Shown in pieces: positions 10,101 through 61,464 of a stretch of 64,000 bases of DNA. The notes below the pieces were generated by a model. The model worked only from the letters and a program-made list of their open reading frames with translations, had not been told where the DNA came from and made no database searches. The stretch is from Mytilus trossulus (taxonomy: Eukaryota), in assembly GCF_036588685.1 (NCBI RefSeq), contig NC_086381.1, forward strand, positions 3,596,001 to 3,660,000, written 5' to 3'. The number at the start of each line of letters is the position of its first letter. Positions within the stretch are counted from its first letter, which is position 1. Position numbers and translations under genes: made by a program.

Positions 10101-10319
10101 TGTTGTAAAGGTGCAATAATTTGATATACCTTTCTTACTACTAGTATAAGATGTCGTCTTGGTAGAATAGACTAATAGGGCAGGAATCCCAGGACTGGAG
10201 ATCACTACAAGTGGGTCGTCTGAGCTCCGGATATATTCTGCGAGGTTGGGCAGTAAATACTAATTAAAGTTCCGGTAACAAATCTGGTTATGGCAATAAC
10301 TTTTCGGACCTTTACTACA
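10101..10319 (-). repeat. 3' LTR (219 bp)
   Basis: Direct repeat of 14990-15202 with roughly ten substitutions and a 6-bp indel; termini TGTAGTAAAGG...CCTTTACAACA; preceded on the minus strand by polypurine tract GGGGAGGAA (10320-10328). Confidence 0.95.
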
Positions 10320-10471
10320 TTCCTCCCCGTTGTATTAAAACGTCAGCCATCAATGCGGACACTAATAAACGATATGCTAAAATCCTTCACCGAACCAAAA
10401 AACAAATTCATAACTGTCAACCAATCAATCATCAGGTTAAAAGCATATATACAAATTCCCTCCTCCTGCAT

Positions 10472-10756
10472 TTAATCTATATTATACAGTTGTCTGGCAT
10501 TCCGAGTTGTCACGCTAGCTATTTCCTCGGAGTGTACGTCAAACATGGATGCGAGCTTCCAGATGATTTCCTTAAGTAGTCCAGGGGATGCATCGTGGTG
10601 TCCTTGAGGTTTAAGATAGGGTGAGTCAGTCTCCGAAACTAGATCCTCCAACTTCATCTCACAAACGGTTGCTCTATAACCTGTATACTTGTTATCCATG
10701 AGTAGGAACGGAGAGATACCAAATTTACCGTTTGGAAACATGGCTTTACATGGCAT
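10472..10756 (-). pseudogene. TatD-family DNase C-terminal fragment inside the retrotransposon
   Basis: FPNGKFGIS...LEDLVSETDSPYLKP...P..L..I...LA.......EEIASVTTRNARQLY matches the TatD ETDxPYL motif and terminal helix; the N-terminal part is missing. Confidence 0.8.
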
Positions 10757-12649
10757 CTACATCCCAAAAATAGTAGAGTATACCATTTCTAAATTCAAGT
10801 TGAGATTTTGACTGCCACAAATGCCTTACCAATGGGCTACTCATCTGTAAGTCTTGTTTTGAAGGAGAGAAATCAGTAGATAACCAGGCAATAATAGTAC
10901 TCAGATCTATGTCATTCTTTTGTGCGTCTCTTAATTCAGTTTCAGTATAAGGCTGTAATATCTTCCCTTTTGTGGATGTGACATCTTTAATGCTTACAGC
11001 ACGTACTGTTAGTGGTTTAACTAAGTCTACTTCTTCTTCAAATGTGGACCACTGATTCCGGGCTCTTATACAGTATTTACAACCTCCACATGGAAGATTA
11101 TTAAGTGGAATACTTGACAAGTACGAATTGCATTCATTAAGTGTATCTGGGATTCGTGAAAGAGCATCTGCGTTTACATGTTTTTTACCTGGTCTATGTT
11201 GAACTAACATGTTGTATTGTGATAGTTCCTCAATCCACCGAGCTAGTTGACCTTCAATATTCTTGAAATTTAACAGCCAAGTAAGACTATTATGATCTGT
11301 ACGGACAACAAACTGGTTACCTAGTAAATAATGTCTATACCGCCTTGTAAAAGTGACAATAGCCAATAACTCCTTTCGAGTTGTACAATACTTTTTCTGA
11401 GCTGGCGTTAAAACCTTTACTTGAAAAGCTTATAGTTCTTTCTTTTCCATCTTGTAGTTGGCTAAGTTCAGCACCAATGGTTTTGTCTGAGGCATCAGTA
11501 TCAAGTATGAAGGTAGCTTCTGGATCAGGATAGGCTAACACAGAAGAATTTACTAGTGCTATTTTTAGTTGTTCAAAAGCATTTTCCTGTTCTTCAGTCC
11601 ATACAAACTCCGATTTTCCTCCTATTAATTTATGCAGAGACACAGCAATTTCAGTATAATTCTTTATGTGTTCCCTGTGGTAGTTTGTGAACCCGAGAAA
11701 AGATTCCAGCTCCTTTTTTTTCTTTGATCTTGGCCAACTTTTTACAGTCTGCATATTCTCCGGATTTACTGACATACCATCGTTGTTTACAATTTTTCCC
11801 AAAAACTTGACTTCTTTTTGAAATGAGAATCATTTGGACGGTTTAAGTTTTAAATTGTAGTACTGAAATCTTTTTAAGATGTGCAGAAGCTTAAATGATC
11901 ATCAAAACTGTGACCTAAAACGATGACATCATCCAAATATGCAAGGCATTCTCTCCATGTCAGACCTTTCAAAACCAACTGAATGACTCGGCTGAAAGTA
12001 GCTGGTGAGTTATATAACCCAAAAGGCAGTCGGACATGCTCGAAAAGTCCATATTTCGTGACGAAAGCCGTTTTATGTCGATCTTTCTCATCGATCTCTA
12101 TTTGCCAATATCCTGCAGCCATGTCCAACGTACTCATGTAGGCACTTCCTCTCAAAGTATCCATACAAGACTCAATCTTTGGCAAAAGAAAAACGTCCTT
12201 AGTTGTCACTTTATTAAGGGGACGAAAATCAATACAGTACCGCAGACTGCCGTCCTTCTTTCTTACTAAAACAGGACAGGAACACCAATCTGAAATAAAA
12301 GGTTTAATAACCCCCTTATCTAACATTTGACTAAGATGTTTTTCTTCTTCATTTTCAAATTTCAGTGGAGTTCTACGCATTTGTTGTTTAACTGCAGCTG
12401 CCTCCCCTGTGTGAATTCGATGTTTAATATCCCCATTAAACAATCCCAGATCCATGTCGCCTTTAGAAAAAATATTTTGAAATTCAATGAGTACTTCAGC
12501 AATCTTTATGCTATGATCTATGTCAAAATCTTTTACTGTTCGAGTATACAAATCTTTTAGGTGTTCTGGAATCTTAGAATTGAGTTCTTTTAATTTGTTG
12601 AGTTTATTTACAGAATTCTCATCTTTTAGTATAGTACAAATTGTTGTGG

Positions 12650-12950
12650 ACGGGTTGAGAGAAAATCTGTCACCTTGGGGCGGACTGACAGAAAATCTAT
12701 CACCTTGGGGCGGACTGACAGATAATATGTCACCTTGGGACGGACTGACAGAAAATCTTTCACCTTGAGGCGGACTGACAGAAAATCTGTCACCTTGGGA
12801 TGGACCAGCAGAAACCCTGTCACCTACACGTACCTTTTCCATTGTCTCGAAATTACCAGTTGGCGAACTGACAGAAAGTCTGTCACTTATGGTTTCTAAT
12901 GTTTTACACGAATTTGGATTATCGACATTGACAGAAACTCTGTCACTATG
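12650..12950 (-). repeat. 30-bp in-frame tandem repeat in pol (GDRFSVSPPQ, about 6 copies plus 2 dispersed)
   Basis: cggactgacagaaaatctgtcaccttgggg units between protease and RT. Confidence 0.9.
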
Positions 12951-13729
12951 TACTTCAGGGTCTTCAGCCAAATCACCCTGAGCAGTTACAACGTTGTATA
13001 TCTCCATACCAATACCAAATTTATGGCCACCTTTCAATGTGATAAAAGTGTCTGTGTCGTTTCGAAATACATCCTTCACGGTTTCATCCTTAGCAATTAA
13101 AGCATTTGGGGACAGAAGACCTTTTAAATTGGATTTCGGCTGAATGATTATATCATCAGCTGGGGGGTGATCAATTTCCATATCAACTATTTTTAAACTA
13201 TGAGGTGGCACAAATGTTTTCTTTTTTATACTAATCCTGTATAAGTTTATTTCTTCTCCCTCGTTCCCAACAAAACAGACCGCTGGTATAGCCTCATTGT
13301 TTGCGTGGACTGTGTAGTTTGCCATATCAATAACTGCTCCAAATTTCTCCAAAAAATCAATACCCAGAATGATATTATCATTTATGTTAGCAGTTACAAA
13401 CCTCCATTTTGATTTTAACTTCCCTATTTCAATAGGAATCTCCTCTGTATATCTAGCATCAATTTTAGAATTTTTTCCAGCTCCTCTCAAAACTAAATGT
13501 TCCTTTAGTTTAATTGTTGAATGCAAAAGTGGTAAAATTGAAGTACTCAAAACAAATATTTGTGCTGCACTATCTATTACAGCCTTAAATGTTCTGCCTA
13601 AAATTTTCATCTCAATGAACAAGGTTTTTGATTTTTTGCTTTTATCAAGTGAAAAAATTTCTTGAATCGAAAACTTCTGTTCTTGACCAGACATTTCTGT
13701 TGGCGGTTGGCCTGTATCATCTGAAAAGG

Positions 13730-13769
13730 TCAAGGATTGGCCTACATCCTTGGCCCTGAATCGTTTAAA
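13730..13769 (-). promoter_or_regulatory. gag-pol -1 programmed ribosomal frameshift signal
   Basis: Slippery heptamer T TTA AAC (13769-13763) in the gag frame, followed by stem CAAGGAT-gtaggcca-ATCCTTG. The -1 frame reads FKRFRAKDVGQSLTFSDD, continuous with the pol ORF. Confidence 0.8.
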
Positions 13770-14499
13770 GCTTTTGGTGATGGAGATCTATTACGATAGG
13801 GAGAACTGTTTCTGGGTTTCTTGCAATCCCTACTAAAATGACCTTCTTCCCCGCAATTGTAGCAATTACCTCTTGCAGGACTATTGTACCTTCTTTGTGG
13901 CGAAAAAGCTCGATCTGTTCCTTGTGGTGACCTTGACCTGTATTTTTTCCTTCCAATAATTGACCAGGACTACTTTTTTCCTCTTTTTCGGCTATTACTT
14001 TTTCTACCTTAAGCACAGTTTCTTTCTGCTGTAGTTGATTTTCTTTGAATATTCATGTATATCTTTAATTTCATCATTCTGTGATTTAATCATTTATTTC
14101 ATTTGTTCAATTTGTTCCTCTTTCTGTTTTGCATAAATGTCTCTTTGTTGTTCAAAAGTAAGCCTCTGTTCTTCTATCTGTGCTTTACTCTGTTCAGAAA
14201 TTTTCTCAATTTTTGTTTGAAAAGTCTCTGCCATATCATCTCTCGACTTTTCTACCGACAAAATCTTATGACGTAATGACTCAATAGTGTTTTTTAGAAC
14301 CTCTTGACCTTCATCAGACTCCTCTGGGTGCAGTCCACAATGATTGGGGTGCTTCTGAAATCTCTTTAAGTTTATCTAAATTAAGTAATCCCTCTTCTTC
14401 TCTCTTTGCAATTATTGCTAAGGCTCTAGTTTCACCTATCCTTTTAATCGCTTTTAACTGCGTAAAGTTAGCTTTGTTTATATTTATCGGTTTCGCCAT
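13742..14499 (-). pseudogene. gag: gag pseudogene: N-terminal helix-hairpin-helix, coiled coil, CCHC zinc knuckle
   Basis: MAKPININKANFTQLKAIKRIGETRALAII (HhH_3/ComEA-like); E/K/Q-rich coil in a shifted frame; CYNCGEEGHFSRDC at 13864-13823; only ~750 bp, so the capsid region appears deleted. Confidence 0.8.
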
Positions 14500-14975
14500 T
14501 TTATTTTACGCAATGTTTATAATTATGCGATTTATTATTTACTAAATAACCGTGTAGCGGTTTGTCGCAATCTGTCAGTCACACTGACACAATTATATAA
14601 ATATGCAGTTTATCATTTACTGAATAACAAAATAGCGGATTGTCAGTAACACTGACACTGATTTATAACGATAAGATAATTGTTCAATGATTAGCCATAT
14701 TGCGGAGTGTCAGTAAAACTGACACCAGGAATTTTTCAAAATTTTCAAATATTATCAAAGTAGGTATTTCTATGAAAACAAATGGATGTAAGGGCAAACG
14801 GTTGTCAGAAATTCTGACATTAAATTTCCATGATTTTTATACTCATGAAATATGTAATGTTCTTTTCTGTAGGTACAATAACTATTTGTTTTCTTTGTTG
14901 TGATTTTTCAGTTTTGCCGCCAAAATGTCAGGAAACAATGAATGTCTCGAGTCGATTTAAAGTAAATTCAAACCG

Positions 14976-14988
14976 ACTTCTGACACCA
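14976..14988 (-). promoter_or_regulatory. Primer binding site complementary to the tRNA-Leu 3' end
   Basis: TGGTGTCAGAAGT one base inside the 5' LTR boundary; complements ACTTCTGACACCA of tRNA-Leu(CAA). Confidence 0.85.
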
Positions 14989-14989
14989 A

Positions 14990-15202
14990 TGTTGTAAAGG
15001 TGCAATAATTTGATATACCTTTCCTAATATAAGATGTCGTCTTGGTAGAATACCCTTATAGGGCAGGAATCCCAGGACTGGAGATCACCACAAGTGGGTC
15101 GTCTGAGCTCCGGATATATTCTGCGAGGTTCCGCAGTAAATACTAATTAAAGTTCCGGTAACAAATCTGGTTATGGCAATAACTTTCCGGACCTTTACTA
15201 CA
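14990..15202 (-). repeat. 5' LTR (213 bp)
   Basis: Direct repeat of 10101-10319, adjacent to the PBS. Confidence 0.95.
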
Positions 15203-21653: not shown

Positions 21654-24600
21654 ATGAAGACATCGGCTATTGTGACTCTTTTGTTGATTCATATATATCT
21701 AGCAAACGGTGAGTTGAATATTTTTAAAAGCAATCAATTATCAGGTATTCGTTTTTTTTTTTAATAAAATAAATCATTTATTGCACATTTCTCTGCTAAT
21801 TACAACTTACTCGACTCACAGCATTCAGTCGGGTATCCCTGTAAATTAGTTAAACAACCAGAGAGACTATACAATGAAATTAATATATATCAAATTTGAT
21901 TAGTTATACAGTTATAATATAGTAATAATATATAAATACATTGACAATTTTTTTTTTTACAGTTTCCTCATATTACGTAATTACGGAATTTTTACTATCT
22001 ATTGTCTGATATTGTTTATATATTTTATCAGGTATTCGTAACTATTTTCCCACTTTACGTGTAAGGCAATTTCTTATTATATATTTTAATAGTTATGTAG
22101 AAAAAGAGTTAAACAATAAACTGCATTAAGTCTGATAACGTTATTATATTTGAATTTCAAACAAAATAAGATTAAAAAAATATAAAAGATAGGTTTGGGA
22201 AACAAGCTTTTGTTTGGTTGATTTTAGTTGGATTATCTTTCCGCAATCCCCGAGTCTTTTCAGATCAGTACTTTGTGTCGTTTATTTTTTTATTAGTTGT
22301 GTTCATTTGTCAATCACTTCTATTCCGTTTTTTTTATATTATAAACGGGTAACACCGATGCATTTCTTAAATTTTGTTTTGTTTTACTAAATGTTAAAAT
22401 GAAACTGACATCATTCTTACAAGAATCTAAGCCTGGTATAATGAATTTATGTAAACTATGGAACTTTTCAAAGTCAATAACCCTTACCATAGTACAGCGC
22501 CAAATGATATACAAATATTTATACAACTACATACAAAGTATCATTAACTTAATATAGGTTTTCCTCTTAAACTGACTTATCCGCACTTTTTGTTTATCTC
22601 TCGAATAAATTTTCTCATATAATCAAAAACCTAAATATGGTAATATGTAAACGTCAATGAACCATGATGGAGGGGACTGATATATTAAGTCCATAATAAT
22701 GATAAAATTGAGAATAATAATGGTATATGTTTATGCTAGTCCAATAACACACCAACTAGCATTAGCTTATTGTAAGTGTTTCTTAACATTTTTATTTCCC
22801 CGTAAAATGATATAATTACAAACTTTAATATGTTAATAGCTTAAACATCAAACGTTTTAATGCCAAAGGAACATTATTGAGATTGCGTGGTCCAATATTT
22901 TTCTTTGAAATTACATGTGCCAAATATAAATGATTTTATCAACTCAATCACATGGTGGTTCAAAACCAGATAGATAAATCTAAACAAACACATATTTACA
23001 TACAGACACTTTCATTCATACTTTCACACAACTATCATACCGATTGAAATTGATTGATCACAACAACACTTTAATGTTGTATAAATAGTGTAACACAACT
23101 GCACATCTCCGCGACTTCAACGTGGCGAGAAAAACACCAAACACGACAGGTAGAACATTATTATAAGCTTACTAAACTTTATAAGTTAAAGCAGCATACA
23201 ATTCAGTCAGAAACTTATATCTTTATTAATCTTAATCTTTATTTTATTCATAAATTATTCAACTTTTAATGTATAATGATTTGAATGATTTAATACAAGT
23301 TTTAATATTTCTAACCTCAATATTTATTTAATTTCAGGACATTCGTATCGGTATGATAGAAACAAGAAAGTGTTCAGATCGAAAGTGAAGAAACGTCTCC
23401 TAGAAGATTTCTCACGTAAGAACCGTCTCCTGGAAGATTTCAAGAAGTCATCAGGTCCATGTCCACCTGTGGCATGTGAACAGGAATTTATTCCAGACGA
23501 ATGTCGGATGAAAACCTATTTTTATAAAAACGGTTACAAATGTCAAGGATGTGATAATAACAAATGTTCAAAGAGGGTTACAGATTTAAAACGTTTGGTC
23601 AAAAAAATACATTCAATAAAACAGAAAAATATTAGACCGATTCAACAAAAAACAGTCAAAGTTATTGAAGTCCATGCTGAAAAAGAGGAAAGAAGACCAT
23701 CTATCCGAGATAATTTTCCAGACATTTTAGTTCGAACGCCTTTTGATAATGTTCACCATACAGATAACTTTCCAGAATCGTCCGATCGATTGCATCCAGA
23801 CATCCGCAGCAATCTAGGTTCTTTATCTGATTCAGCTGTTCGGCTTCCCCAAGACAACATTCGAAGGCGAGGTTCTTTACCCGATTTGTCCGTTCGACTG
23901 CCCCCAAACAACATTGGAAGTCTAGGTTCCTTTTCTGATTCATCCATTCTAGTTTCCCCAGATATCTTACGAAATGAAGAATCTTTATTTGATAATTCAG
24001 TGCGGCTGCGCCCAGACAACGTTGTGAGTCGTGATCCTTCACCCGATTCATCAGTTCGATTGTTTCAAGATAACGTTGAACCCTTAAGTCCGTTTCCAGG
24101 CTCGTCAGTTCGGTTACCAGCAGACAGTGTCGGACCAAACGATACCCCAGTTGCTCCACCACCACGACCAGTTTCTCCGATTCCTGCTGCACAACCAGAT
24201 TCCCCGCTACCTGCAATTCTCCAAGACTTGCCGCCACCTGCTGCACGACCAGATTCTCCTCTACGTACAATATTACCAGACTTGCCTCCACCTGCTGCAC
24301 TACCAGTTTCACCGCCAGTTCAACCAATAATAACACCCGACGTTGGACAACAAACAAGAGATCCTCTATCTGTTCTCAATGCGCCTCCATCCGACAATGA
24401 ATTCGCCAACAGAGTAAGATTTGACAGCAGCAATGCAAACTTGTTACTACCACCAGTTGATACTGAAAATGTTCAGAATCCATTGATGAATCAAAATACA
24501 ATGCAGAATCCGTTTTTACAAAATATCCCAGCACCATTTCAAGGTCAACAAAATAATAATCCTTGGCCTCAAATTCCGGGGTTTATGCCTCAAAATTTAC

Positions 24601-25328
24601 AAGGTGGAGGTCAATCCCCTGAAATGCAATTAGTTCAAAATCAGCAGATATTGGACCAACTCAGAGGACAACAAGCTGCATTAGAATTTCAAATACAACA
24701 ATTAAGAGGTCAGCAGCAGGTTCCAGCATTTGGACAATTCCCTATGCCTCAGTTTCCTACTGGTGGAATACCACAGACTCAACAAGGTTTTCCTAATAAT
24801 GGAATTCCTCCAAATTTTCAAGGTTTTCCAGCCAATGGAGTAAATACAAATCTACAGGGACAAGGATTCCCGGGTTTTGTACCACAAGGATTCCAAGGTT
24901 TTGGACAAAACACAAACCCGTTTATGACTGGAATGCAACAACCAGTTTCAAACCAAAATTTAGGACCTAACCCAAATGGTCAAGTTTCTCAGTTCCTGAA
25001 CCAGTTGCCTCCTGTTCCAGGCATTAATTCTAACTTTCAAGGTCAAGTACCTTTGAATGGAAACTTTCAAGGGCAAGTGCCTTTAAATGGAAATTTTCCA
25101 GGTCAACCGCCTTTAAATGGAAATTTTCCAGGTCAAGCGCCTTTAAATGGAAACTTTCCAGGACCTGCGTTAACCGCCTCAAACCCATGGGCATCTGTTC
25201 AAGGATTTGCGAATCAAGGCCAAAGTAATGTTCAAACATCAAATACAGGTGGTTTTGTTGATCCCGTAACAAACCAAGCTTTACCGGCAAGCTCTAACAG
25301 TTTTCATGGTCCCATTGCTCAACAGTAA
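21654..25328 (+). CDS. Gene A: secreted 6-Cys-module protein with long Ser/Asp/Pro and Gln/Asn/Gly/Phe/Pro repeat tail, 681 aa; exons 21654-21708 and 23338-25328
   Basis: TATAAAA at 21594; exon 1 MKTSAIVTLLLIHIYLAN-G then GTGAGT donor; tttcag acceptor at 23337 gives phase-1 in-frame splicing into the 652-aa ORF; AATAAA at 25431. Confidence 0.88.
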
Positions 25329-31723: not shown

Positions 31724-33495
31724 ATGCAGTCTCTTCTTTGTATTGTGCTTGTTTTGGTTTCTCTCTATTTAGTGCAAGGTATGATTTTCATTTTAGTTAA
31801 TATAAATCCAGGCTTTAAAGTTCATTCAGATAATTTGTAGAAAAAAACATAATAGAATTTGAAAAGATAAATATGTATTTTTGTAAAAATTTTAATATAC
31901 TGGGACCACTATGAATAGTAATTCCAGATATATGTGTCGAGTAACTAAAAAATAAACAATGGAACAAAAGAACAATTGGACAATTTGCCTTGACTAGACA
32001 AAACTATAACATTAAAATAATAAAATGTATGCACTGATTATGCATTATACGTTTTTAACTGGAATATTAAATTGAAATGTTTTGTTCCATGAGCGCCCGG
32101 CAATTGTATTTAAATTGTATTCGATTAAAAAAAACGTGGGTACAACCATAGATATTTTTCTGCACCCAATTTAATTAAAAGTGTGATCTATTAAATGATT
32201 TAATCAATGAATGTGCAAACTCAATTTTATGAATTCAAAATTGATAAATATTTTTCATTTACTATTATTTCTGATATTTGTGTTGAAATTAATGAATCAA
32301 TAAATATGAATACGTTCGAAAAACGAATAATAATTATAATAAAACAATAAAGTCAATGTATGTATGTCTTATAAAGTACGATCAATAACAAGATGTTTTA
32401 TTGCGAGGAAAAGAAAAGACAAAACACAAATGGTTTATTGTGTTTAAACAGCATGCCAATTGTTTCAAAATATAACACTATATAAAATACTTTGAAATCT
32501 TAAAGACATGTATGCCAAAAAAGACAATTATGTTACATTTATTGAGTTTTTCAAAAATATTCATCTTTTTAACGACTTTGTTGGTTATTGCTCTTCTCTT
32601 CGATACGGTGAGACTATCGTTAACGAAGTTTCAAATGTACATTCTTACGTAAAAAGCTTCCCGACGTCGTCGTTGTTCCTAACTTGATGATTAAATCTTT
32701 CTTTTAAAATTACAGAAATTAAAGATACATGTAAGACGTGTATTATTTCATGCAAATGTTAATATTTTTTGATTTACATTCTTTTCTAAATTTATCTTTT
32801 CAGGTCGAACATATGGCTATCAAAAAAAGATAAAAAAGGCTCACGTGGTTAAGGTAAAGGATCCCATTGGATTCCCGACAGATCAAGTACATATACCTAA
32901 AGAACCTGTTCTGTTACCAAGTAAGAGACTACCTGACTGTGATGTAGGATGTACTCTACAGATAATACCACCAGAGTGTATACAAGAAACATTTGGATTT
33001 GAACATGGCGTCAGGTGTAGAGGCTGTGATGTTGATATATGCAACAGAGGAAGGGGAGATAATTTAGATAGATTGCAGGGCGGTTCCCAGTGGCAAAACG
33101 GAGGCAGAACCCAAAATTTAAATAGCAGAATAGGCGGAGGATTCGTTGATAGTTTAGGTGGAGGCAGAAACCAAAATCTAAACAGCCGAATAGGCGGAGG
33201 TTTCCTTGATAGTTTAGGTGGAGGTAGAAACCAGAATTCAAACAGCAGAATAGGCGGACAATTCGTTGATAGTTTAGGTGGAGGAAGAAACCAAAATTTA
33301 AACAGCAGAATAGGCGGAGAATTCGTTGATAGCTTAGGTAGTGATTTCTTTAACGAAGTACAAAACTCGAATTTAGGTGGTAGATTTAGAAACAGACAGA
33401 ATACTAATTTTGAAAGTAGAAACAGATTGGATATAAACTCAAATGACAGAAGAAACCGCTTTGAAACAAACAGACAAGTTGGGAGTGGGTGGTGA
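31724..33495 (+). CDS. Gene B: secreted 6-Cys-module protein with Gly/Asn/Arg-rich 20-aa repeats, 248 aa; exons 31724-31778 and 32804-33495
   Basis: Exon 1 MQSLLCIVLVLVSLYLVQ-G with GTATGA donor; ttttcag acceptor; in-frame exon 2 GRTYGYQKK...; AATAAA at 33597; paralog of C and D. Confidence 0.9.
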
Positions 33496-42851: not shown

Positions 42852-44495
42852 ATGCAGTCTCTCCTTTGTTTCGTGCTTATTTTGGTTTCTCTCTATTTAA
42901 TTCAAGGTATGATTTTCTTCATTATGAAAATAAATAAAGGTTGTAATGTTCAAACATATAATGTGAAAAAAATTAATATAATATATTTGGAAATACTAGA
43001 ATTTGATTATAAAATGCAAATTTGTTTTATTGTGATTTGTTATATATACTAGGACTTCTATAGTAGTCTCAACTATATCTGATGAATACATAAATTAAAA
43101 ATAAGACGAACTATACAGTTCAATAATAAGTACTACTTATGCTTTATACGTGTCAATCTGCAATATCAAAATAAAATGTTTCGTTCAATGAGCACGTCAC
43201 AATTGTACTTTAATTGTATAAGATAAAAAAGAATTGTGCTACAACCATTGATGTTTTTCGTCGCCCAGTTCATTTGAAAGTATGATCTATTAGATTTTAT
43301 TGTTGAATGTACAAACTTAATTTTAATGAAATAAATATTAATATAATTAAATAAATTTCTTTTACTTTCTCTCTGATGTTTGTTTTGAAATAAGTAAATG
43401 AAACGAATCATTAGATAATGAACTTATATAATTAGAAAAACGAATAATTATAATGAAGAAAATAAGTCAATATCTTCTCGATAACAAGATGTAGAATAGC
43501 AAGGATGGGACAAAAACAAAACACAAATATCATTAATTGTTTTTAAACAACATTCCAATTGTTTCATAATATAACACCAAATAAAATGCTTTGAAAATAT
43601 TAAAGAAATGTATGCTGAAAACGACAATTATGTTACACAATTTGAGTTTTCTCGATACGGTGAGACTATCGTCGACGAATTTTCATATTTACATGTTTAT
43701 GTAAGAAAGCTTCGCGACGTCGACAATGTTCCTAACTTGATCATTTAATCTATCAGTCCTTTTAAAATTAAAGAAATTAGAGATAAGACGTGTTATACTA
43801 CATATCATGCAGATGTAAATTTATTTTGACTTACATTCTTTTCTCTATTTATGGTTTCAGGTCGTACATATGGCTATCAAAAAAAGATAAAAAGGGCTCA
43901 CATGATTAAGGTAAAGGATCCCATCGGATTCCCGACTGATCAATTACATATAACTAGAGAACCAGTTGTGTTACCAAGTAAGAGACTACCTGACTGTGAT
44001 GTGGGATGTACTCTCCAGATTATATCACCAGAGTGTATACAAGAAACATTTGGATTTGAACATGGCGTCAGGTGTAGAGGCTGTGATGTTGATATTTGCA
44101 ATAGAGGAAGGGGAGATAATTTAGAAAGGTTGCACGGTAATTCCCAGTGGCAAAACGGAGGCAGAAACCAAAATTTAAACATCAGAATAGGCAAAGGATT
44201 CGTTGATAGTTTAAGTGGAAGTAGAAACCAAAATTTAAACAGCAGAATAGGCGGAGGATTCGTTGATAGTTTAGTTGGAGGTAGAAACCAAAATGTAAAC
44301 AGCAGAATAGGCGGAGAATTCGTTGATGGTTTAGGTAGTGATTTCTTTAACGAAGGACAAAACTCGAATTTAGGTGGTAGATTTAGAAACAGACAGGATA
44401 CAAATTTTGAAAGAAGAAACAGATTGGATATAAACTCAAATGACAGAAGAAACCGGTTTGAAACAAACAGACAAGTTGGGAGTGGGTGGTTATGA
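42852..44495 (+). CDS. Gene C: close paralog of gene B, 229 aa; exons 42852-42906 and 43861-44495
   Basis: Exon 1 MQSLLCFVLILVSLYLIQ-G; tttcag acceptor at 43860; near-identical Cys module; three rather than four 20-aa repeats; AATAAA at 44594. Confidence 0.9.
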
Positions 44496-50911: not shown

Positions 50912-52079
50912 ATGAAGTCACTTATTTGTTGCACGTTTCTATTTGTCTCTTTATGCTCAGTTCAAGGTATGATTTTCAACGTCTGTAATGTTAATATTTT
51001 ATTTTGTGAATATGTAAATTTAAGTCACGTGAAGTGTAGTGTAAAAAAATAGAAAGTTATTTTGAAAAAAATCAAAAATAATCTTTACTTTGGTCTTTTT
51101 GATATTAATGTAGAAATAGGATTGAAAAAATGAAAAGAAAAACATTGATAACCTCAAAAAATATAATAATATTTTCCTAATAGACAACATGAATTTCTAT
51201 GTGTTTTTCTAGTCGTGTACACTATAGTTTTTTTTATTAGAGATTTGGTAAATTGTGTCAAACTTATAAACGGACGCACTGTTGATGCTGCATTTTGGTT
51301 TCTTCTTTATCACGTTTTACATTCCATGTCACAGATGAAATATAAATTGTAACTCCAATACTGTAAGCTAAATTTAATCAAATAAAATAACAAAATATTT
51401 TTTTTATTTTATAGGTCGCAGCTATGGTTATCACAAAAATACCAAACATACTACCGTGGTTAAACCCAAGGATCATGGGTTTCTGAAAGATCCGATCCAT
51501 ATACCAAACGACCATGGGTTTGTAAAAGAACCAGTTCATATACCAAACGACCATGGGTTTGTAAAAGATCCAGTTCATATACCAAACGACCATGCCGTGT
51601 TACCTAGCAACAAACTGCTTCAATGCAATAAACCGTGTACTCTACAGATAATACCGCCACAGTGCGTACAAGAAACAATCGAATTTGAACATGGCGTCAG
51701 GTGTAGAGGCTGTGACATAGACATTTGCAGCGGCAGGGGAGATAGTCTAGATAGATGGCAGGGCGGTTCCCAATGGCAAGATGGCAGCTTTCAAAATAGA
51801 AACCAGAGAATAGGCGGAGGATTCGTTGATAGTTTGGGTAATGATTTTCTAAACGTACTAGGACAAAATTCTAATTTAGATGGAAGAATTGGAAATAGAT
51901 TCGATACAAATCTTGATAGAAGAAACAGATTTGATACAAATAATGACAGAAATAACAGGTTTGATACAAATATTGGCAGGAGAACAAATATTGACAGAAA
52001 TAACAGATTCGACCAAATTTTCAATGAAAGAAGAAGCCGATTAGATACAAACAGACAAGTTGGCAATGGTTGGTTGTGA
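50912..52079 (+). CDS. Gene D: secreted 6-Cys-module protein with His-rich 13-aa repeats and Asn/Arg/Asp tail, 239 aa; exons 50912-50966 and 51415-52079
   Basis: Exon 1 MKSLICCTFLFVSLCSVQ-G with GTATGA donor; ttttatag acceptor; exon 2 GRSYGYHK...; AATAAA at 52190. Confidence 0.9.
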
Positions 52080-54227
52080 TCATGTGGTAACAAACTCAGT
52101 ATGATCTAGAGGCAGTATGAACAATTAAAACAAAGAAATCCATTGCATATAACAATGTTTTGTGGAATTATACATTTTTTTATATACGTAATAAAAATTT
52201 GAAAGTCTATACTAAAGTTTTTTTTTAGTTCTAGCTGATTTGACTGAATACTTTTTCTTTAAAGGTAAATTAACATGCATGTTTGGTAGTGACATATCGG
52301 GAAAAGGTGCATTTTACGACTGATTTTTAGTTATTATTTAAACGTTTTTAACATGAAAACCTTTTTTCCTTGAACCTTTTTTTTTTTTAATGAAATTTGG
52401 TTGGATTACGTATGAAGAATATTTGTACCAATTTTCATGAAAATGTAATTGCATAAATTTATAGGCCATTTATATGAATTACAAATTATGTAGCAAATTA
52501 TGTAGCAAAAACAGCTTGTGTTTATTAATTTTTAAAATAAAGAAAAGTTATGTATTTCTGTCGAAAGGAAAAATACGTCCACAAATCCTAATTTTTGGTA
52601 AATATCTGAAATTTCGACCTCGTTTTACTCAAAAAGTAGCACGTGAATGTATATTTTTTATTAAATATTTGATTTAAGCAGGTAAAAAATAGCCTATATA
52701 GAAATGTTATTTAAAATTTAAATACGGGATCAAACTGTATTGATGCCCTTAAATCTGAAAGTACGGCACAGATACAGTTCTTAACCATTATAATGTATTC
52801 ATTCCTATCTTTAGACGTTTTGAATCAATAAGATGTGCCTACTTTTATCTATGCTGATATTCAGACAACATCTGTAAAGTGCAGGGCGCTTACAATGTCG
52901 ACACAGCCGCTATTTCCTTATAAGAAATATGCGATATTTCACATTTTGTTCATTTATATATGAAAAAAGAGATGCGGTATGATTGCACGTGATATAGATA
53001 TTAATTCATCAGAGTTAAAACTATGTGATTATACTATGTGATTATACTATGCAACTGTACGACTTTCAATGATGAGAAATCACAATAACGTTTAGTCGGC
53101 TATAAAAGGCTTCAACATGAAAAAAAATCATACCAGAATACTTTCGACACAACTTAAAGCAGAACGATTAACGAAAAAAACATATGCTAGACATAAACCC
53201 ACGACAACCCCTGAACTACAGGTAGACTTGGGACAGGAAAACAAAGAATATGACGGGCTTAGCCACGTTTGTGAGCGCACAACATTTATATAATTTCAGT
53301 CGGTTGATTTTATGAATTAGAATGAAATTATTTTCTTCTGAATTGTCTGCCCATATAGGTGGCGTTTAGGTTAAGTGGTTTGTATGATTTGGCGGTTAAA
53401 TCATTCGGCACGACAGGGTCTACTCGATAGGTCACGTTAATTTTTACATCCATGCTATTTGATATTTTGTATCATGCATTAAGATATCGATTGTTTACAA
53501 ATGTTTGTGTGTATTGAAATACTAATACATATATAGATATCTAGCGGGAAGGCTATAGTGCAGGCGATTTGGTTGTTATTAAACCAGCCCTCGGCTCTGT
53601 CGTGTGGTATTGCACTTTACTATTTTTTGTTATTTATTAGTATGATTATTATCAGTGGTTGTGGTATATGGGTGTTAACGGAAGAAGAAAGTTGATATAT
53701 TCCAATTTCATGATGCATGATGATTGAAGAACTATGTTGCCGATTGTTTATTTACATTTTTATTCGACACTTCACCGATTTCTTAATAGAGTTACTAGGT
53801 CAAAACATACGTCACCAATTATAATTATAATTTAATGTCTTTAGCATTTCTCTTCTAGTAAAAGTGACCCGCTGTTTTCTCGTTGAGAATTTATATACAT
53901 TTACCATCAAAATATACATTAAATGCTGTAATAGACATAATATATGTAAGATATGAACTCGTTTGCATTTATTTTTATAGGTTTGACCGGGTGTCACCGT
54001 TCTTTGATCTTTTAATTTGTTTTAATAAGTTGTTTATGAAAAGTACAAACTACTCAGATTTTTATATACCTCTGTAATAATCTTTTTGGTGTTATTACGT
54101 TGGAATCTTTTAGCACGATTTTACAATAAAGAAAAACATATATAAGAATTATTCTTTTGATCTCCCAAAGACTTGTTTATAAGCTCAAGAAGCTAAGTTG
54201 GCCGATATTTTTCACTTTTAACTGTAA

Positions 54228-55090
54228 AAAGTCTGAAACCTTGTCGATCCAAGGTCAGGAACCCTGTAGTTCAAAGTCAGGAACCTTGCCGTTCCCAAGT
54301 CAGAAACCCTGTCGTTCAAAGTCAGAAACCTTACCGTTCCCAAGTCAGAAACCCTGTCGTTCAAAGTCAGGAACCCTGTCGTTCAAAGTCAGGAACCTTG
54401 CCGTTCCAAAGTCAGATACCCTGTAGTTCCAAGTCAGAAACATTGCCGTTCCAAGTCAGAAACATTGCCGTTCCAAGTCCGAAACCTTTTCGATCCCAAG
54501 TCAGGAACCCTGTCGTTCAAAGTGAGGAACCTTGTCTGTCCTAAGTCAGGAACCCTGTCGTTCCAAGTCAGGAACCTTGCCGGTCCCAAGTCAGGAACCT
54601 TACCGTTCCATGTCAGAAATATTGCCTATCCCAAATCAGGAACTTTGTCTGTCTCAAGTCAGGAACATTGCCTGTCCAAAATCCGGATTATTGCATGTAC
54701 CAAGTCAGGAGCCTTGCCGTTCCAAGTCAGGAAAATTGCCGTTCCCAAGTCAGGAACCTTACCGTTCCAAGTCAGTAATCTTGCCTATCTCAAGTCAGGA
54801 ACTTTGCCTATCCCAAAGCAAGAACCTTGCCTGTTCCAAGTCAGGAACATTGCCTGTCCCAAATCCGGATAATTGCATGTACCAAGTCAGGACCATTGCC
54901 TTTCCGAAGTCAGGAACCTTGTCGTTCCTAGTTAGGAACCTTGCCATTCCAAGTCGGGAACCTTGCCAGTTCAAAGTCAGGAGCCTTACCGTTCCAAGTT
55001 CAGTAGAAACATTGCCGTTTCAAGTTAGTAATCTTGACTGTCCAAATCCGAAATCTTGCGTGTCCCAAGTCAGGAACTTTGCCGTTCCAT
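54228..55090. repeat. Minisatellite, ~21-22-bp unit GTTCCAAGTCAGGAACCTTGCC, about 40 copies
   Basis: Direct inspection of the tandem units; the unit has the internal dyad gttcc...ggaac. Confidence 0.95.
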
Positions 55091-57367
55091 ATGTTGAAAG
55101 GGGTATTGTTTGTTTTACTTCTTTATTTTTAGCTTTCTGTATGCGACTTAAATATTATATTGTTACATTAATAGATTGGGTCTGGAAGAATATTTAGTAT
55201 TTTGTAAAAACAATGTTTTCATGGGAAAATGTATCGAAATAGTTATGAATTAGATGAGAGATTCATTCAAAATAAATATGTCAAATGACTTAAAATGTTT
55301 GAATGAAACAATCTTAGAGTATAACTATCTGCACTTTCTCCCAGAGGGTAATAGCACATTATATTTAGATCACAATTTAAGTTATCTACTACTGCACATA
55401 ATTTCCCAGCACTTATTTTAATGTTGACACTTCAATAACCAATGAGAGTTAAGTAGGTAGTGGATAACCTTATAGTTCTACTTCATTTTATCAAAGAAAT
55501 ATACGACAATAATATTTTGAAGTCGTCTGGAACGTGACATTCCATCGTGTTGCTGAAATTAATGCCGCCTAAAAAGTCCATTCTTACTATTCTATAGAGT
55601 TTGTGCAAACATTTGTTTTGATTATTTTATATACTTCCAATATGATAATGGTCCATATGATAGGTAAGTTATCTATTTATTATTTATATCTTAATGTCCA
55701 GTGGCAAATACTTCATTCATATATTAGGATAAGTAAGTTATTAGTTTATTATTTATATCTTAATTTCCAGTATCAATTTTGTTTGCTTGATATTAAATAA
55801 ATAGTTATTATTTATATCTTAATGTTCAGTGGCCAATATTTCATTCATTTATAAAGATTAAATTAATTTTTTTTACTGTTTAATAAATATTATAGTAATA
55901 ATTTATATTTTCATGTCCGGTGGCAAATAGTTCGATTATGTATTTAAAAAATCGGATTAGATTAATTTTGTTTGATTAAATCATAAATAGTTGTTAATTG
56001 ATCCCTTCACACTGTCTTTCAATTTTATTTTTTGATATATTTTCCTTAAAATCTATATTTTCATTATTAATTATTGATCGTTATTATCATTTTAATGAAA
56101 AAATAAAGAAACATGTAAACTGCTTTACTATTTTATTCTATTTTGGAAAAAAAATGCCCCCAAAAAATAAAAAAAATGCGACAACTTGTTTTCTAACCCA
56201 TACTCTATTCTTTGATTTTGGTAGCAAGTTCGAGTTTTTTTCTTGGTAGGCCTAAATATTTACATTATTTCAAATGAAGGAAGAATCCAAAATATATTAA
56301 AGATACATAATTGTATGTTCTTTAACGAGACGTTCAGTGTCTCGTCACACAGTTGTTCAAAATAAGCTGGAGGAACATGTTTAACCACTTCAAATCTGAT
56401 GTGTATTTCCTTAGTCCTGAAATTTAGTGGTAATAGCAGGTTTCTGTCTGACCTATTTCTTTAATTGTTTTTTCGTTTTCCGTTTTTTGATCGTTTTAAT
56501 ATTATGTTTGTGATAATTTTATGATATTTTTTCTCATTGTTGATAGCCTTACAGTTGCCTATATTTGCGCACTGTTACATCATTTGGTCTCTAGTAAATA
56601 AACTCATTATAGATATCCGGACAAAATTTAGTATATATGCCAGACGCGCAATTCGTCTACAAAAGACTCATCAGTGACGCTCGAATTAAAAAAAAGTTAA
56701 AAAGGCCAAATAAAGTACGCAGTTGAAGAGCATAATAATAGTAATCATTCACTTAGTTTATTTCACATGCCTAAGTAAGTAACATTCATGAACAAAGTGT
56801 TCTGCATATTGAACGCTATCTGGCCAATGGTCTTTTTAATCTACAAAGTTGTTATATTACATTTTGTATTCCGATCTGGAATCTAAACTGACAGATTGAC
56901 TAGTGAAAACTTAACGCTAACCACGAACAGTGTCCTACGAAAGATAACTCTGTCTTTATTTAGCTTTTTAAAAACCAAATTGTAAGGGACGTACAGGTTA
57001 CAATACACCATTAGATTAACATGGTATTTAGAATAAAGAGTATGGCTAATCCTGATTGGTCGATATGTGCGCCCGTTATTTTCTATCATTAGAGACTTTA
57101 TGCACTCTGCTTTATACTAAAGGCAAAATAAAAATTATTCCGTAGCCCTAAAGGCACTTAGATGACTTTTCAACGATATAGGAACAAAATTATACGCTAA
57201 GAAAAGCAATGCGAACCTACATGTTTGGACCAACAAATACGGTCCCAATTACTTTTCTTTGATTCTAGCAAGATTTCTTTAAATTAATCAATTTTCTAAA
57301 GTCTGTATCTCCAAAAAGGCTACCATTGTCGCCCATGTGGAAATTAATTGTTTATTTCAATCTACAT

Positions 57368-57757
57368 GGTAACAAGAGTGCAATTATTCGTAATGCATTT
57401 ACCATATGGTACCACTGTTGTTTTCTCGACGACTACGCAAACTAGGGAAAACGGGTAGCAGTTCCGTTTACTAGAAATGCCAGTGTTGGATTCAACCAAA
57501 AAAAATATATATAGGGTGATGCGGCTCAAATTAACTTCAAATGCTGTTGGAAGATCTTCTATTTTTTCGCTTACTGAAAAGGGCATATCTTTAATTGCTC
57601 CGACGTGCAGAAATGGAAGATATTTTCTATTCTTCGTTAAATGTAAATATGATTTTCGGCAATTTTTACACCTAATTGGACAAGCTTTCGATGAAATGTA
57701 ATTCCAATCCTGTATCATCCAATCCGAAGCCGTATAGGAGCTATTCTGAGTACCATC
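57368..57757 (+). mobile_element. Truncated second copy of the 6964-7422 MITE
   Basis: Colinear with 6964-7367; right TIR missing, replaced by the satellite array. Confidence 0.85.
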
Positions 57758-57777
57758 GTAAAAAGTTTTGTAGAGAT

Positions 57778-60016
57778 CTGAACACATGATACGGGACGGA
57801 TGGACACGCGCGAGCACATACCTGTACACATGATACTGGACGAATGTACACACGATCGCACAGTTCTGAACACATGATACAAAATACAAAACAGATGGAC
57901 ACACGATCGCACAGACCTGAACACATTATAGTTGACGGATTGACACACGATCGAACAGACCTGTACACATGATACGGCACAGATTGACACACGCTCACAC
58001 AGACCTGAACACATTATACGAGACGGATGGACACACGGACGGACAGACCTGTACACATGATCCTGGACGGTTTGACACACGCTCGCACATACCTGAACAC
58101 ATTATACGGGACGGATTGACACACGATCGTACAGATAGGAACACATGATACGGGACAGATTGACACACGATCGTACAGACCTGTACACATGAAACTAGAC
58201 GGATGCACACACGCTCGCATAGACCTGTACACATGAAACTGGACGGATGGACACACGTTCGCTCAGACCTGAACACATGATTCTGGACGAATTGACACAC
58301 GCTCGCACAGACCTGTACACATGATAGGGGACGGATTGACACAAGCTCGCACAGACCTGTACACATTATACGAGAAGGATGGACACACGCTCGCACAGAC
58401 CTGAACACATTATACGGAACGAATGGACACATGATCATACAGACCTGTACACATGATTTAAGACGGATTGACACACGCTCGCACAAACCTGAACATATTA
58501 TACGGGACGGATGGACACACACTTGCACAAACCTAAACGCGTTATACGGGACGGATGGACACATCGACGATAGTACAAACCCGAACACAGGATACGGGAC
58601 GGATCGACGAACGCTCGCACAGACCTGTACACATGATACTGGACGGATGGACACACGCTCGTACAGACCTGAACACATGATACGGACGGATGGACACGCG
58701 CGAGCACATACCTGTACACATGATACTGGACGAATGTACACACGATCGCACAGTTCTGAACACATGATACAAAATACAAAACAGATGGACACACGATCGC
58801 ACAGACCTGAACACATTATAGTTGACGGATTGACACACGATCGAACAGACCTGTACACATGATACGGCACAGATTGACACACGCTCACACAGACCTGAAC
58901 ACATTATACGAGACGGATGGACACACGGACGGACAGACCTGTACAAATGATCCTGGACGGATTGACACACGATCGTACAGATAGGAACACATGATACGGG
59001 ACAGATTGACACACGATCGTACAGACCTGTACACATGAAACTAGACGGATGCACACACGCTCGCATAGACCTGTACACATGAAACTGGACGGATGGACAC
59101 ACGTTCGCTCAGACCTGAACACATGATTCTGGACGAATTGACACACGCTCGCACAGACCTGTACACATGATAGGGGACGGATTGACACCAGCTCGCACAG
59201 ACCTGTACACATTATACGAGAAGGATGGACACACGCTCGCACAGACCTGAACACATTATACGGAACGAATGGACACATGATCATACAGACCTGTACACAT
59301 GATTTAAGACGGATTGACACACGCTCGCACAAACCTGAACATATTATACGGGACGGATGGACACACACTTGCACAAACCTAAACGCGTTATACGGGACGG
59401 ATGGACACATAGACGATCGTACAAACCCGAACACAGGATACGGGACGGATCGACGAACGCTCGCACAGACCTGTACACATGATACTGGACGGATGGACAC
59501 ACGCTCGTACAGACCTGAACACATGATACGGACGGATGGACAAACGCACGCACAGACCTGTACTCATGATGTGGGACGAATTGACACTCGATCGTACAGA
59601 CCTGTATACATGATACTGGACAAATGGACACACGATCGCACAGACCTGTACACATGTTACGGTACGGATGGATACACGCACGCACAAACCTGAACACATT
59701 ATACTGGACGAATGCACACATGGACGCACAGACCTGTACACATGATACGAGACGGATGAACACACGCATGCACAGACTTGTACATATGATACTGGGCGAA
59801 TGGAAAAACACACGCACATACCTGAACACATTATACGGAACGGATGGACACACGCTCGCACAGACCCGATGACATGGTTTGGGACGGATAGACACACGAA
59901 CGCACAGACCGGAAGACATGATTCGGGACGGATGGACACACGAACGCACAGACCTGAACACATTATCTTAATACGAGACGGATGGGCACACGCACGCATA
60001 GACTCGAACACATGAC
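57778..60016. repeat. Minisatellite, ~44-bp unit ACACATGATACGGGACGGATGGACACACGCTCGCACAGACCTG(T/A), about 50 copies with higher-order duplication
   Basis: Tandem units; variant blocks recur at offsets of 890 and 846 bp. Confidence 0.95.
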
Positions 60017-60279
60017 AACCCTCTTCTATTGTGCCCAGTGGGCGGGACAAACACCATGAATGCATAATTTTTATTTTAATTTGAGCTAAAGGATACAGGA
60101 ATTTTACTCTCTATCAGTAATCGTTCCTTTGTTTTATAGACAGACTATATCTGCTATTTATCTGCTTCAATAAAGATTGTCTCTTTGCTTCTTATTATAT
60201 TTTGCTCTCAAAATTTAATTTCTATTATAATAATTTATTGACTCTATTTTTACAACTAGGTAACCGTAACCTTGAAATA

Positions 60280-61464
60280 ATGAAATACTTCCTCTGGTCA
60301 ACAACAGTGTGCAGTTTATTATGCTTCCATGCGCTCTCAACTTACAACAACTTCAACACATGTTGCAAAAACAAACTGGTTAGTCCCAGGTTCATGGATA
60401 TAAAGTCGATGTATTTTGGCGGACCAAATGAAAAGAACGGTGAAGGGGCGTTCCTGAATCGACGCATGCTTTCCATAAATGAAACGTATAAAATTCTTTG
60501 GTACAATTCACCGTCATATTTTCTGAAAAAGGCACATATAAGTTTACGAGCCTGTAGATTCAACAATTGCCAATTAACAACTGATTTAGGACAGATGTCG
60601 GTAGCAGATGCTGTTATATTCAGACATAATTATCTACCGAATATACTCCCTGTTAAACACACCGACCAGATATGGATATTACATGGACAGGAAACGCCAT
60701 TCTATATGAGAAAGAACTACTTAAAGAAGGCATGGTTAGGACAATTTAATTGGTCAATAACATACGGTCATACGTCGGATATCTCAATGCCATATGCTAG
60801 CATTGCCAAGGAAGTCATTAGAGCGAAGAAAAATTATTCAGATATTTATAGAAAGAAAACAAAGCAGGTAGCATGGATAGTTAGTCATTGTTTTGCCGTA
60901 TCCGGTAGAGATGAATATGTCCGAGAATTACGAAAGTATATTTCTGTCGACATTTATGGAAAATGTGGTAATTTGACTTGTTCTAGAGATGGCAATGAAT
61001 GCATGGATAACATTAGTAAAGAATATAAATTCTACCTTTCATTTGAAAACTCTTTATGCAAGGATTATGTTTCAGAAAAAGTGTTTGCACTTTACAATAA
61101 CAAGTACAGTATCATCCCAATAATCCGAGGTGCTCCGAATATTGACGAATACGTCCCACGGAAAACGTATATTAATGCATTTGACTTTGAGAATCCCGAG
61201 ATACTTGCAAACTATTTGTTACGCCTTGGTTCCGATGAACAAACATATTCGTCATATTTGCAGGAGAAAGATAAATTCAGACCTTATTATGCTAGTTACT
61301 ACAGAGCCATGTGCTCTCTATGTGAAAAATTGAATAAGTACAACAAATCAAAGGTACTTGAAAATTCATCATGGTTTACAATACGAAACAATTGTCTGGT
61401 ACCTCAGAATAGATCACAAATTGTTATAAAGGACAGGGCTCCAGATTACTGGTACTGGGATTAA
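60280..61464 (+). CDS. Alpha-1,3-fucosyltransferase (glycosyltransferase family 10), single coding exon
   Basis: N-terminal membrane anchor MKYFLWSTTVCSLLCFHAL; ADAVIF, FNWSITY..SDI..PY, AWIVSHC, VDIYGKCG and the alpha-1,3-FucT motif YKFYLSFENSLCKDYVSEK; likely acceptor ctag at 60259; the ORF track starts at 60202. Confidence 0.93.
   Translation: MKYFLWSTTVCSLLCFHALSTYNNFNTCCKNKLVSPRFMDIKSMYFGGPNEKNGEGAFLNRRMLSINETYKILWYNSPSYFLKKAHISLRACRFNNCQLTTDLGQMSVADAVIFRHNYLPNILPVKHTDQIWILHGQETPFYMRKNYLKKAWLGQFNWSITYGHTSDISMPYASIAKEVIRAKKNYSDIYRKKTKQVAWIVSHCFAVSGRDEYVRELRKYISVDIYGKCGNLTCSRDGNECMDNISKEYKFYLSFENSLCKDYVSEKVFALYNNKYSIIPIIRGAPNIDEYVPRKTYINAFDFENPEILANYLLRLGSDEQTYSSYLQEKDKFRPYYASYYRAMCSLCEKLNKYNKSKVLENSSWFTIRNNCLVPQNRSQIVIKDRAPDYWYWD

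Follow-up and report, generated by a model that had tools for sequence, protein, structure and literature searches.

A helix-hairpin-helix (HhH) domain of ComEA type at the N-terminus of Gag and a TatD-domain protein encoded by a third open reading frame (ORF3) together mark one strongly supported lineage of Ty3/Gypsy LTR retrotransposons, as judged by comparison of sequences and trees from one mussel genome. The lineage was recognised from a decayed copy in a stretch of 64,000 nucleotides of Mytilus trossulus DNA, the whole of which is called the window here. The copies of this family have moved recently and their HhH domain is under purifying selection, and the domain could serve to hold the Gag particle on DNA.

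The window copy and its relatives in the same genome

The window element is 5.1 kb long, with LTRs that are 94% identical (Table 1), and is a dead, decayed Ty3/Gypsy copy. It contains an ORF at 14314..14505 (-) which reads, from stop to stop, NK-MAKPININKANFTQLKAIKRIGETRALAIIAKREEEGLLNLDKLKEISEAPQSLWTA-PRGV and counts 61 aa from the ATG at 14499; this ORF lies approximately 480 nt downstream of a tRNA-Leu-type primer-binding site (PBS), inside the LTR pair. An earlier sequence-only reading had proposed that gag begins here with an HhH domain, which was borne out, as the domain is the N-terminus of Gag in uninterrupted copies. It had also followed Gag through a frameshift into a coiled coil and a CCHC knuckle; both are present, but the frameshift is a lesion of the window copy, and between it and the knuckle there are also a premature stop, another frameshift and the deletion of the capsid. 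These lesions were mapped against a copy elsewhere in the genome that is 96-97% identical. The HhH domain, which where uninterrupted extends to approximately residue 67, is cut in the window by a frameshifting deletion near 14329; a premature stop codon interrupts the coiled-coil stalk near 14094, its frame shifts near 14040, and the capsid domain was lost by a deletion of about 0.75 kb at about 13940. Within pol, frameshifts are found near 11890 and 11420, and a deletion of about 2.8 kb took the integrase (at about 10755) and most of ORF3, of which the TatD remnant is the C-terminal third only. Because of the frameshift and the other lesions, the 61-aa ORF is to be regarded as a truncation product. 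A programmed frameshift after the HhH domain was considered and rejected, as other copies read through in a single frame; a host comEA-like gene or bacterial contamination was also rejected, as the domain sits between LTRs and has 31 matches in the genome.

Table 1. Features of the decayed Ty3/Gypsy element, in window coordinates.
Feature	Position	Strand	Evidence
5' LTR (TG...CA, 213 bp)	14990..15202	-	direct repeat with 10101-10319, 94%
Primer-binding site, complementary to tRNA-Leu(CAG) 3' end	14976..14988	-	sequence; host tRNA-Leu(CAG) genes with matching 3' end
Gag residues 1-57, ComEA-type HhH domain	14329..14499	-	Pfam HHH_3; fold match 8dss; comparison with other copies
Gag coiled-coil stalk	13941..14328	-	ORFs; helix 74-187 in model; comparison with other copies
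Gag CCHC zinc knuckle	13817..13867	-	Pfam zf-CCHC, E=6.4e-9
TTTAAAC heptamer in gag/pol overlap	13763..13769	-	sequence
pol: protease, 10-aa repeat insert (12618-12825), RT, RNase H	10749..13787	-	Pfam
ORF3 (TatD) C-terminal remnant	10472..10756	-	Pfam TatD_DNase, E=1.2e-12; 91% to full ORF3 elsewhere
Polypurine tract	10320..10330	-	sequence
3' LTR	10101..10319	-	repeat of 5' LTR; 4-bp target-site duplication matches at 3/4 bases

A search of the genome with the HhH domain gave the 31 matches mentioned above, 30 of which were read; downstream of these 30 loci, a capsid was found in 25, a reverse transcriptase (RT) in 24 and TatD in 26. Comparison of gag copies from six families showed that the HHH_3 domain, coiled coil, capsid and CCHC knuckle are joined, where uninterrupted, in a single Gag ORF of 516-647 aa, which carries an Arg/Ser-rich tail besides the knuckle. 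The order of pol in such copies is PR-RT-RH-IN, and the TTTAAAC heptamer is likely to be the -1 frameshift site between gag and pol, because six of the eight copies with both frames readable have pol shifted by -1 relative to gag. The family shows the TG...CA LTRs, PBS, polypurine tract and short target-site duplications that are hallmarks of Ty3/Gypsy elements, the duplications being of 4 bp in other copies, and it has moved recently, since several copies combine 100% identical LTRs with 4-bp target duplications. The Gag model has a helix of about 114 residues (74-187) between the HhH and the capsid, and the top Foldseek matches of the capsid are Arc, Copia and PNMA2. Among 85 Gag homologues in databases, 56 have an HhH domain, in each case beginning within the first 25 residues, and those with a name are from mussels (Mytilus), pearl oyster (Pinctada) and oysters (Crassostrea and Ostrea). 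A genome-wide HHH_3 scan returned 86 matches, 64 of which were read: 59 are of the Gag type of the TatD/HhH clade and five are host-like. Three raw RNA runs, picked by species label and read in part, yielded no more than scattered reads within the element; most of the element is covered by one contig set, whose status as RNA is uncertain.

At L037:6261-7964 (-), a deletion copy fuses the HhH and coiled coil in frame with integrase in a 568-aa ORF, and the copies L042 and L062 are present as large inverted duplications. At about 15.40-15.45 Mb of G000:C9 (L225), tRNA-Leu(CAG) genes are repeated in a long tandem array, one unit every 401 bp or so. Elsewhere in the window, three paralogous exons at 32773-33495, 43830-44495 and 51378-52079 (+) encode a Cys-rich module with Gly/Asn/Arg repeats, and a similar Cys module is found in a longer Pro/Gln-rich ORF at 23289-25328 (+). 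Tandem arrays of 44 bp and 22-23 bp units occupy 57750-59950 and 54190-55100, respectively, and the 447-aa ORF at 60121-61464 (+) encodes a putative alpha-1,3-fucosyltransferase.

The HhH domain of Gag

The window ORF matches Pfam HHH_3 (PF12836) with E=9e-8 and 32.6 bits, above the curated cut-off of 27 bits, and ten other Gag-type ORFs score 27.4-39 bits, in agreement with the domain assignment made in the sequence-only reading. A natural Gag was modelled with AlphaFold at a mean pLDDT of 65 (68-80 over the HhH) and a pTM of 0.26, a value at which the model carries no information on particle topology. The top VIA match of the modelled HhH (residues 2-67) is ComEA chain 8dss_B, with Z 9.9 and an rmsd of 1.7 Å over 64 residues (ComEA 143-207); the Foldseek comparison with ComEA gave a probability of 1.00 but an E-value of 0.33. 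When the HhH profile is run against PDB sequences, EEPD1, ComEA and KIF22 come first. Together, the modelling supports a ComEA fold for the Gag N-terminal domain.

The fit to the ComEA consensus claimed earlier holds for the Pfam profile and the predicted fold, but the window domain has KRIG for PGIG and the second G-h-G hairpin is absent. The domain keeps the I-N-x-A start and a basic residue at the position of ComEA K164, and has a first hairpin in which the G-h-G motif varies. Residues were counted in 52 scored homologues, four of the 56 not fitting the pattern. The second hairpin G-h-G, followed by Lys in ComEA, is found in none of the 52 and is missing from all 12 rows of a further alignment as well. 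In the first hairpin, the first Gly is kept in 17 and lost in 35 (the window has Arg, giving R-I-G), and the second is Gly in 46 and Ser in six. Four families, in the branch other than that of the window, retain a full PG-h-G first hairpin and have Ile or Thr at the K164 position. This position, aligned to B. subtilis K164 and G. stearothermophilus K166, is Arg or Lys in 48 of the 52 and corresponds to Arg25 in the window on a numbering offset inferred from construct lengths; the Lys is reported to be required for DNA binding by ComEA (PMC9747964). With a net charge of -6 to +3 the domain is close to neutral, and its C-terminal helix is hydrophobic and conserved. Because the second hairpin motif is missing from all scored homologues, DNA binding by the Gag HhH is regarded as no more than plausible.

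Across six families, mean identity is 48% in the HhH domain, 18% in the coiled coil and 60% in the capsid. For the HhH, most pairs of subfamilies within the canonical branch have a dN/dS ratio (Nei-Gojobori; pairs with dS 0.15-1.5 only) of 0.06-0.21, compared with 0.11-0.15 for the capsid, and two pairs that include a decayed copy reach 0.36-0.43. In the window's branch, close pairs give 0.31-0.54, from few changes and partly decayed copies; pairs across the branches give 0.56-1.29, values which are near saturation and uninformative. These ratios indicate that the HhH domain is under purifying selection, which looks weaker in the window's branch.

TatD, ORF3 and the lineage

A TatD-anchored search gave 119 matches; 40 of these outside the first set were fetched, with upstream extensions, and 35 of the 40 have a Gypsy pol domain upstream. 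Thirteen TatD families were found, 12 of which have an HhH-Gag. The remaining one, the L074 type (L074, L075, L083 and L084), has an intact TatD ORF3 and a Gag with neither HhH nor CCHC knuckle; since it transposed recently, the HhH is dispensable. Neither HhH nor TatD was found in 20 other Gypsy elements used as controls, a small set drawn from 150 scored RNase H matches (1765 candidates) in one genome. In an RT-RH tree of 34 rows, none of which was dropped, the 13 TatD rows and one further row, included for its HhH, form a single clade with 100/99 support, as would be expected of the distinct Gypsy lineage that the sequence-only reading had suggested. One change on this tree suffices for TatD and two for HhH, and a tree forcing all HhH rows into one clade is not rejected (p-AU 0.24); the HhH may have been lost in the L074 family or gained after TatD, both being compatible with the tree. 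The co-occurrence of HhH-Gag and TatD, examined in this one mussel genome, is thus close but not strict, failing in the L074 type and in short elements that have HhH-Gag without TatD, and the dedicated pair of DNA-binding domain and nuclease that had been proposed is partly contradicted by the same two groups.

These short elements (L134, L135 and L138) are non-autonomous, about 5 kb long, and carry HhH-Gag and a truncated Tpt1 remnant but lack RT, integrase and TatD; in L134 and L138 the visible parts of the LTRs are 100% identical. In two families of the clade, a Tpt1/KptA RNA 2'-phosphotransferase lies ahead of the protease (L078:1194-6650 and L076:1418-3694; E about 1e-35), and L078 also has a PHD finger after the integrase. 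In members of neighbouring Gypsy lineages (L118, L119, L127, L129 and L130), ORF3 is short, encodes C2H2-like zinc fingers and lacks TatD. Another Gypsy element, at L125:2-2215 (-), has a long ORF3 with a signal-peptide-like start, possibly an env, and no Pfam match over the cut-off. A metagenome scan gave four loci, one of them long enough to be read (L185): this contig encodes pol, TatD and a weak HhH match (E=0.007, below the cut-off). Viral and prokaryote collections returned only matches at the level of the TatD domain, one locus of which was looked at further.

ORF3 of uninterrupted copies is a separate frame of about 490 aa between pol and the 3' LTR. It was modelled at a pLDDT of 92 and its C-terminal part is a TatD barrel (Foldseek E=2e-15), in which the full class II TatD set of eight residues (HxH followed by His, Glu, His, His, Glu and Asp) is present in all 13 families. 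In close pairs its dN/dS is 0.13-0.25, and in comparisons with one decayed copy 0.39-0.73. Ahead of the barrel lies an N-terminal module of nearly invariant Cys and His residues followed by a helical domain, with no Pfam match; the Cys/His module is readily recognised in L074 and in the branch of the window, and only faintly in the other branch. It gave no profile match to the C2H2 ORF3s of the sister lineages, which were considered as its possible origin, and its Atlas matches are loosely zinc fingers from mixed families. With a Cys/His module and TatD as its content, ORF3 does not have the make-up of an env glycoprotein. A complex prediction of ORF3 with Gag residues 1-72, in which alignments were not used, scored 0.00, 0.37 and 0.00 and weighs neither for nor against an association.

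The TatD tree broadly parallels the RT tree, which suggests that TatD was captured once, long ago. Database TatDs group with the TatD of the L074 family (99 SH-aLRT), and this quick tree, which includes no named host TATDN2, does not resolve the donor. The named ORF3 homologues come from mussels, a scallop and an oyster, and many further full-length homologues, without names, are among the 50% cluster representatives. Human TATDN2 is reported to degrade the RNA of R-loops (PMC10711561), and TATDN1/3 are described as 3' exonucleases and AP endonucleases (PMC10085689); in view of these activities, a putative role of the mussel TatD in processing reverse-transcription intermediates is reasonable. 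Intronless TatD genes outside the clade lie at L073:7359-9300 and L072:8344-9303, and that of L073 adjoins an OTU-like protease (E=2.5e-12), perhaps as part of another mobile element.

Possible roles, known relatives and annotation

It is predicted, with about an even chance of being right, that the Gag HhH acts as a multivalent tether of the particle to host DNA or chromatin, displayed outside the capsid. This is the best guess because HhH domains of this kind bind poorly alone and well in multiples, and a capsid would supply the valency: single (HhH)2 domains of EEPD1 are reported to bind DNA unstably and several together stably, and DNA binding by ComEA to need oligomerisation (PMC12988330, PMC9747964, respectively). 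The N-terminal pre-capsid domains of PNMA2 are described as lying outside and forming outer spikes (PMC10945824), and by analogy the HhH would be placed outside the capsid on the helix that follows it. The first hairpin, together with the basic residue aligned to K164, would make the contact with DNA, and the dozens of weak HhH copies shown by a capsid would offset the lost second hairpin by avidity. TatD would most likely have a separate task, as a nuclease that degrades by-products of reverse transcription, either RNA:DNA or DNA. Against the tether stand the absence of the second hairpin (0/52), the low retention of the first Gly (17/52), the near-neutral charge and the Ile or Thr at the K164 position of the PG-h-G families, as well as the apparently weaker selection in the window's branch and the recent transposition of the HhH-free L074 type.

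Part of this evidence would suit an HhH fold that no longer binds DNA and is kept at the N-terminus of Gag for assembly or for interaction with proteins: the second hairpin is lost in 52/52 and the first Gly in 35/52, the charge is near neutral, the hydrophobic C-terminal helix is conserved, and (HhH)2 domains are reported to dimerise XPF-ERCC1 and Mus81-Eme1 (PMC12988330). Such a role is nevertheless unlikely, given the basic residue at the K164 position in 48/52, the PG-h-G motif kept in four families and the second Gly of the first hairpin retained in 46/52. A second module of nucleocapsid type, in which the HhH would bind the element's own genomic RNA during assembly or its cDNA, would be in line with the retention of the domain in non-autonomous elements, and the only HhH-free TatD family is also without the CCHC knuckle, hinting at linked nucleic-acid handling. 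The N-terminus of the PNMA2 capsid, however, faces outward (PMC10945824), HhH domains are known as binders of dsDNA (PMC9747964, PMC12988330), and a knuckle and an Arg/Ser-rich tail are present in Gag already, which makes this reading quite improbable. Least likely of those considered is a dedicated pair in which the nuclease of ORF3 works on DNA bound by Gag, comparable to the layout of HhH and EEP domains in EEPD1. Co-occurrence in 12/13 families and at 26/30 HhH-anchored loci, the broad parallel between the TatD and RT trees and the metagenome contig with its sub-threshold HhH, pol and TatD all favour such a pair, but shared descent alone suffices for co-occurrence. In the L074 family, with which the database TatDs group, an intact TatD occurs without HhH; the short elements have HhH-Gag without TatD, although complementation in trans is possible; and the two domains are on separate ORFs, with ORF3 having its own conserved Cys/His N-terminal module.

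Taking the tether further, it may tentatively be proposed, though the proposal is rather doubtful as a whole, that this is an old and widespread clade of marine-invertebrate Gypsy elements which assembled a DNA-handling kit from cellular parts. The kit would comprise a stalked, ComEA-like receptor on the capsid surface, with avidity for chromatin or free DNA, and a TatD nuclease (with Tpt1 and PHD in one branch) that processes intermediates of replication or erases signals which the host would detect. If so, many bivalve annotations of 'TATDN2', 'tatD' and 'comEA' would refer to parts of such elements.

The closest structural relative is the DNA-binding domain of ComEA (PF12836; PDB 8dss and 8dfk), with which the Gag HhH has in common the fold over the whole domain, the I-N-x-A start, a first hairpin of variable motif and the basic residue at K164, as well as the linkage of the HhH to an oligomerising domain. 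The Gag domain differs from ComEA in lacking the second G-h-G hairpin and often the first Gly, in having no signal or membrane anchor, in its fusion to a retrotransposon capsid and in having no role in competence. The best PDB sequence match overall is EEPD1 (two HhH and EEP; PDB 9yi2), with E=7.7e-19 over two domains, yet its score per domain is below that of ComEA (36 vs 49 bits). A host gene with the EEPD1 layout presumably exists in the same genome, where one such locus (L149) appears to be present. EEPD1 is reported to need several HhH copies for binding (PMC12988330), whereas each Gag chain has one HhH, and a separate ORF supplies the putative nuclease, a TatD. In Juno and Vesta, Ty3/Gypsy elements of bdelloid rotifers, ORF3 is described as a DEDDy exonuclease or a GDSL esterase (PMC5408684), likewise a non-env third gene after pol and, where a nuclease, with catalytic residues intact; the mussel ORF3 is a TatD TIM-barrel instead, is kept clade-wide and is accompanied by HhH-Gag. 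The HxH motif, the eight active-site residues and the fold are those of class II TatD proteins (TATDN2, TATDN3, YcfH and YjjV) as described in PMC10085689 and PMC10711561, from which the mussel protein, a predicted nuclease, differs in being retrotransposon-borne and preceded by a Cys/His module and a helical domain. PNMA2 and Arc have a similar capsid that is also preceded by a folded domain or coiled coil, but these host genes are domesticated, and their N-terminus is RRM-like or a coiled coil and not an HhH.

No description of HhH-Gag or of TatD in LTR elements was found in the literature listings searched, and neither came up on term look-up in PMC6962438, PMC10309623, PMC5718144, PMC8556966, PMC5408684 and PMC12440569. 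The helix-hairpin-helix described for Cer1 CERV sits on a different protein, and accessory genes in LTR elements are known, including the nuclease ORF3 of rotifers (PMC5408684). The clade may already bear a MolGy number or an RT-based name among the mollusc Gypsy clades named in PMC6238403 (C-clade, CsRN1, Cigr and MolGy1-16). As Gag N-termini help to set the destination of retroelement particles, a captured HhH would be a new targeting module in the form of a 70-residue domain, and TatD is an additional nuclease fold among the accessory enzymes of LTR elements. The combination of HhH-Gag and TatD provides a simple diagnostic for a clade that counts at least 13 families, several with identical LTRs, in a single mussel genome, and explains misannotations of Gags as comEA, CFAP45-like or interaptin-like and of ORF3s as TATDN2 or tatD. 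One TatD labelled as belonging to a bacterial symbiont MAG (P0283) falls among the retrotransposon TatDs, and host contamination is its likely source.
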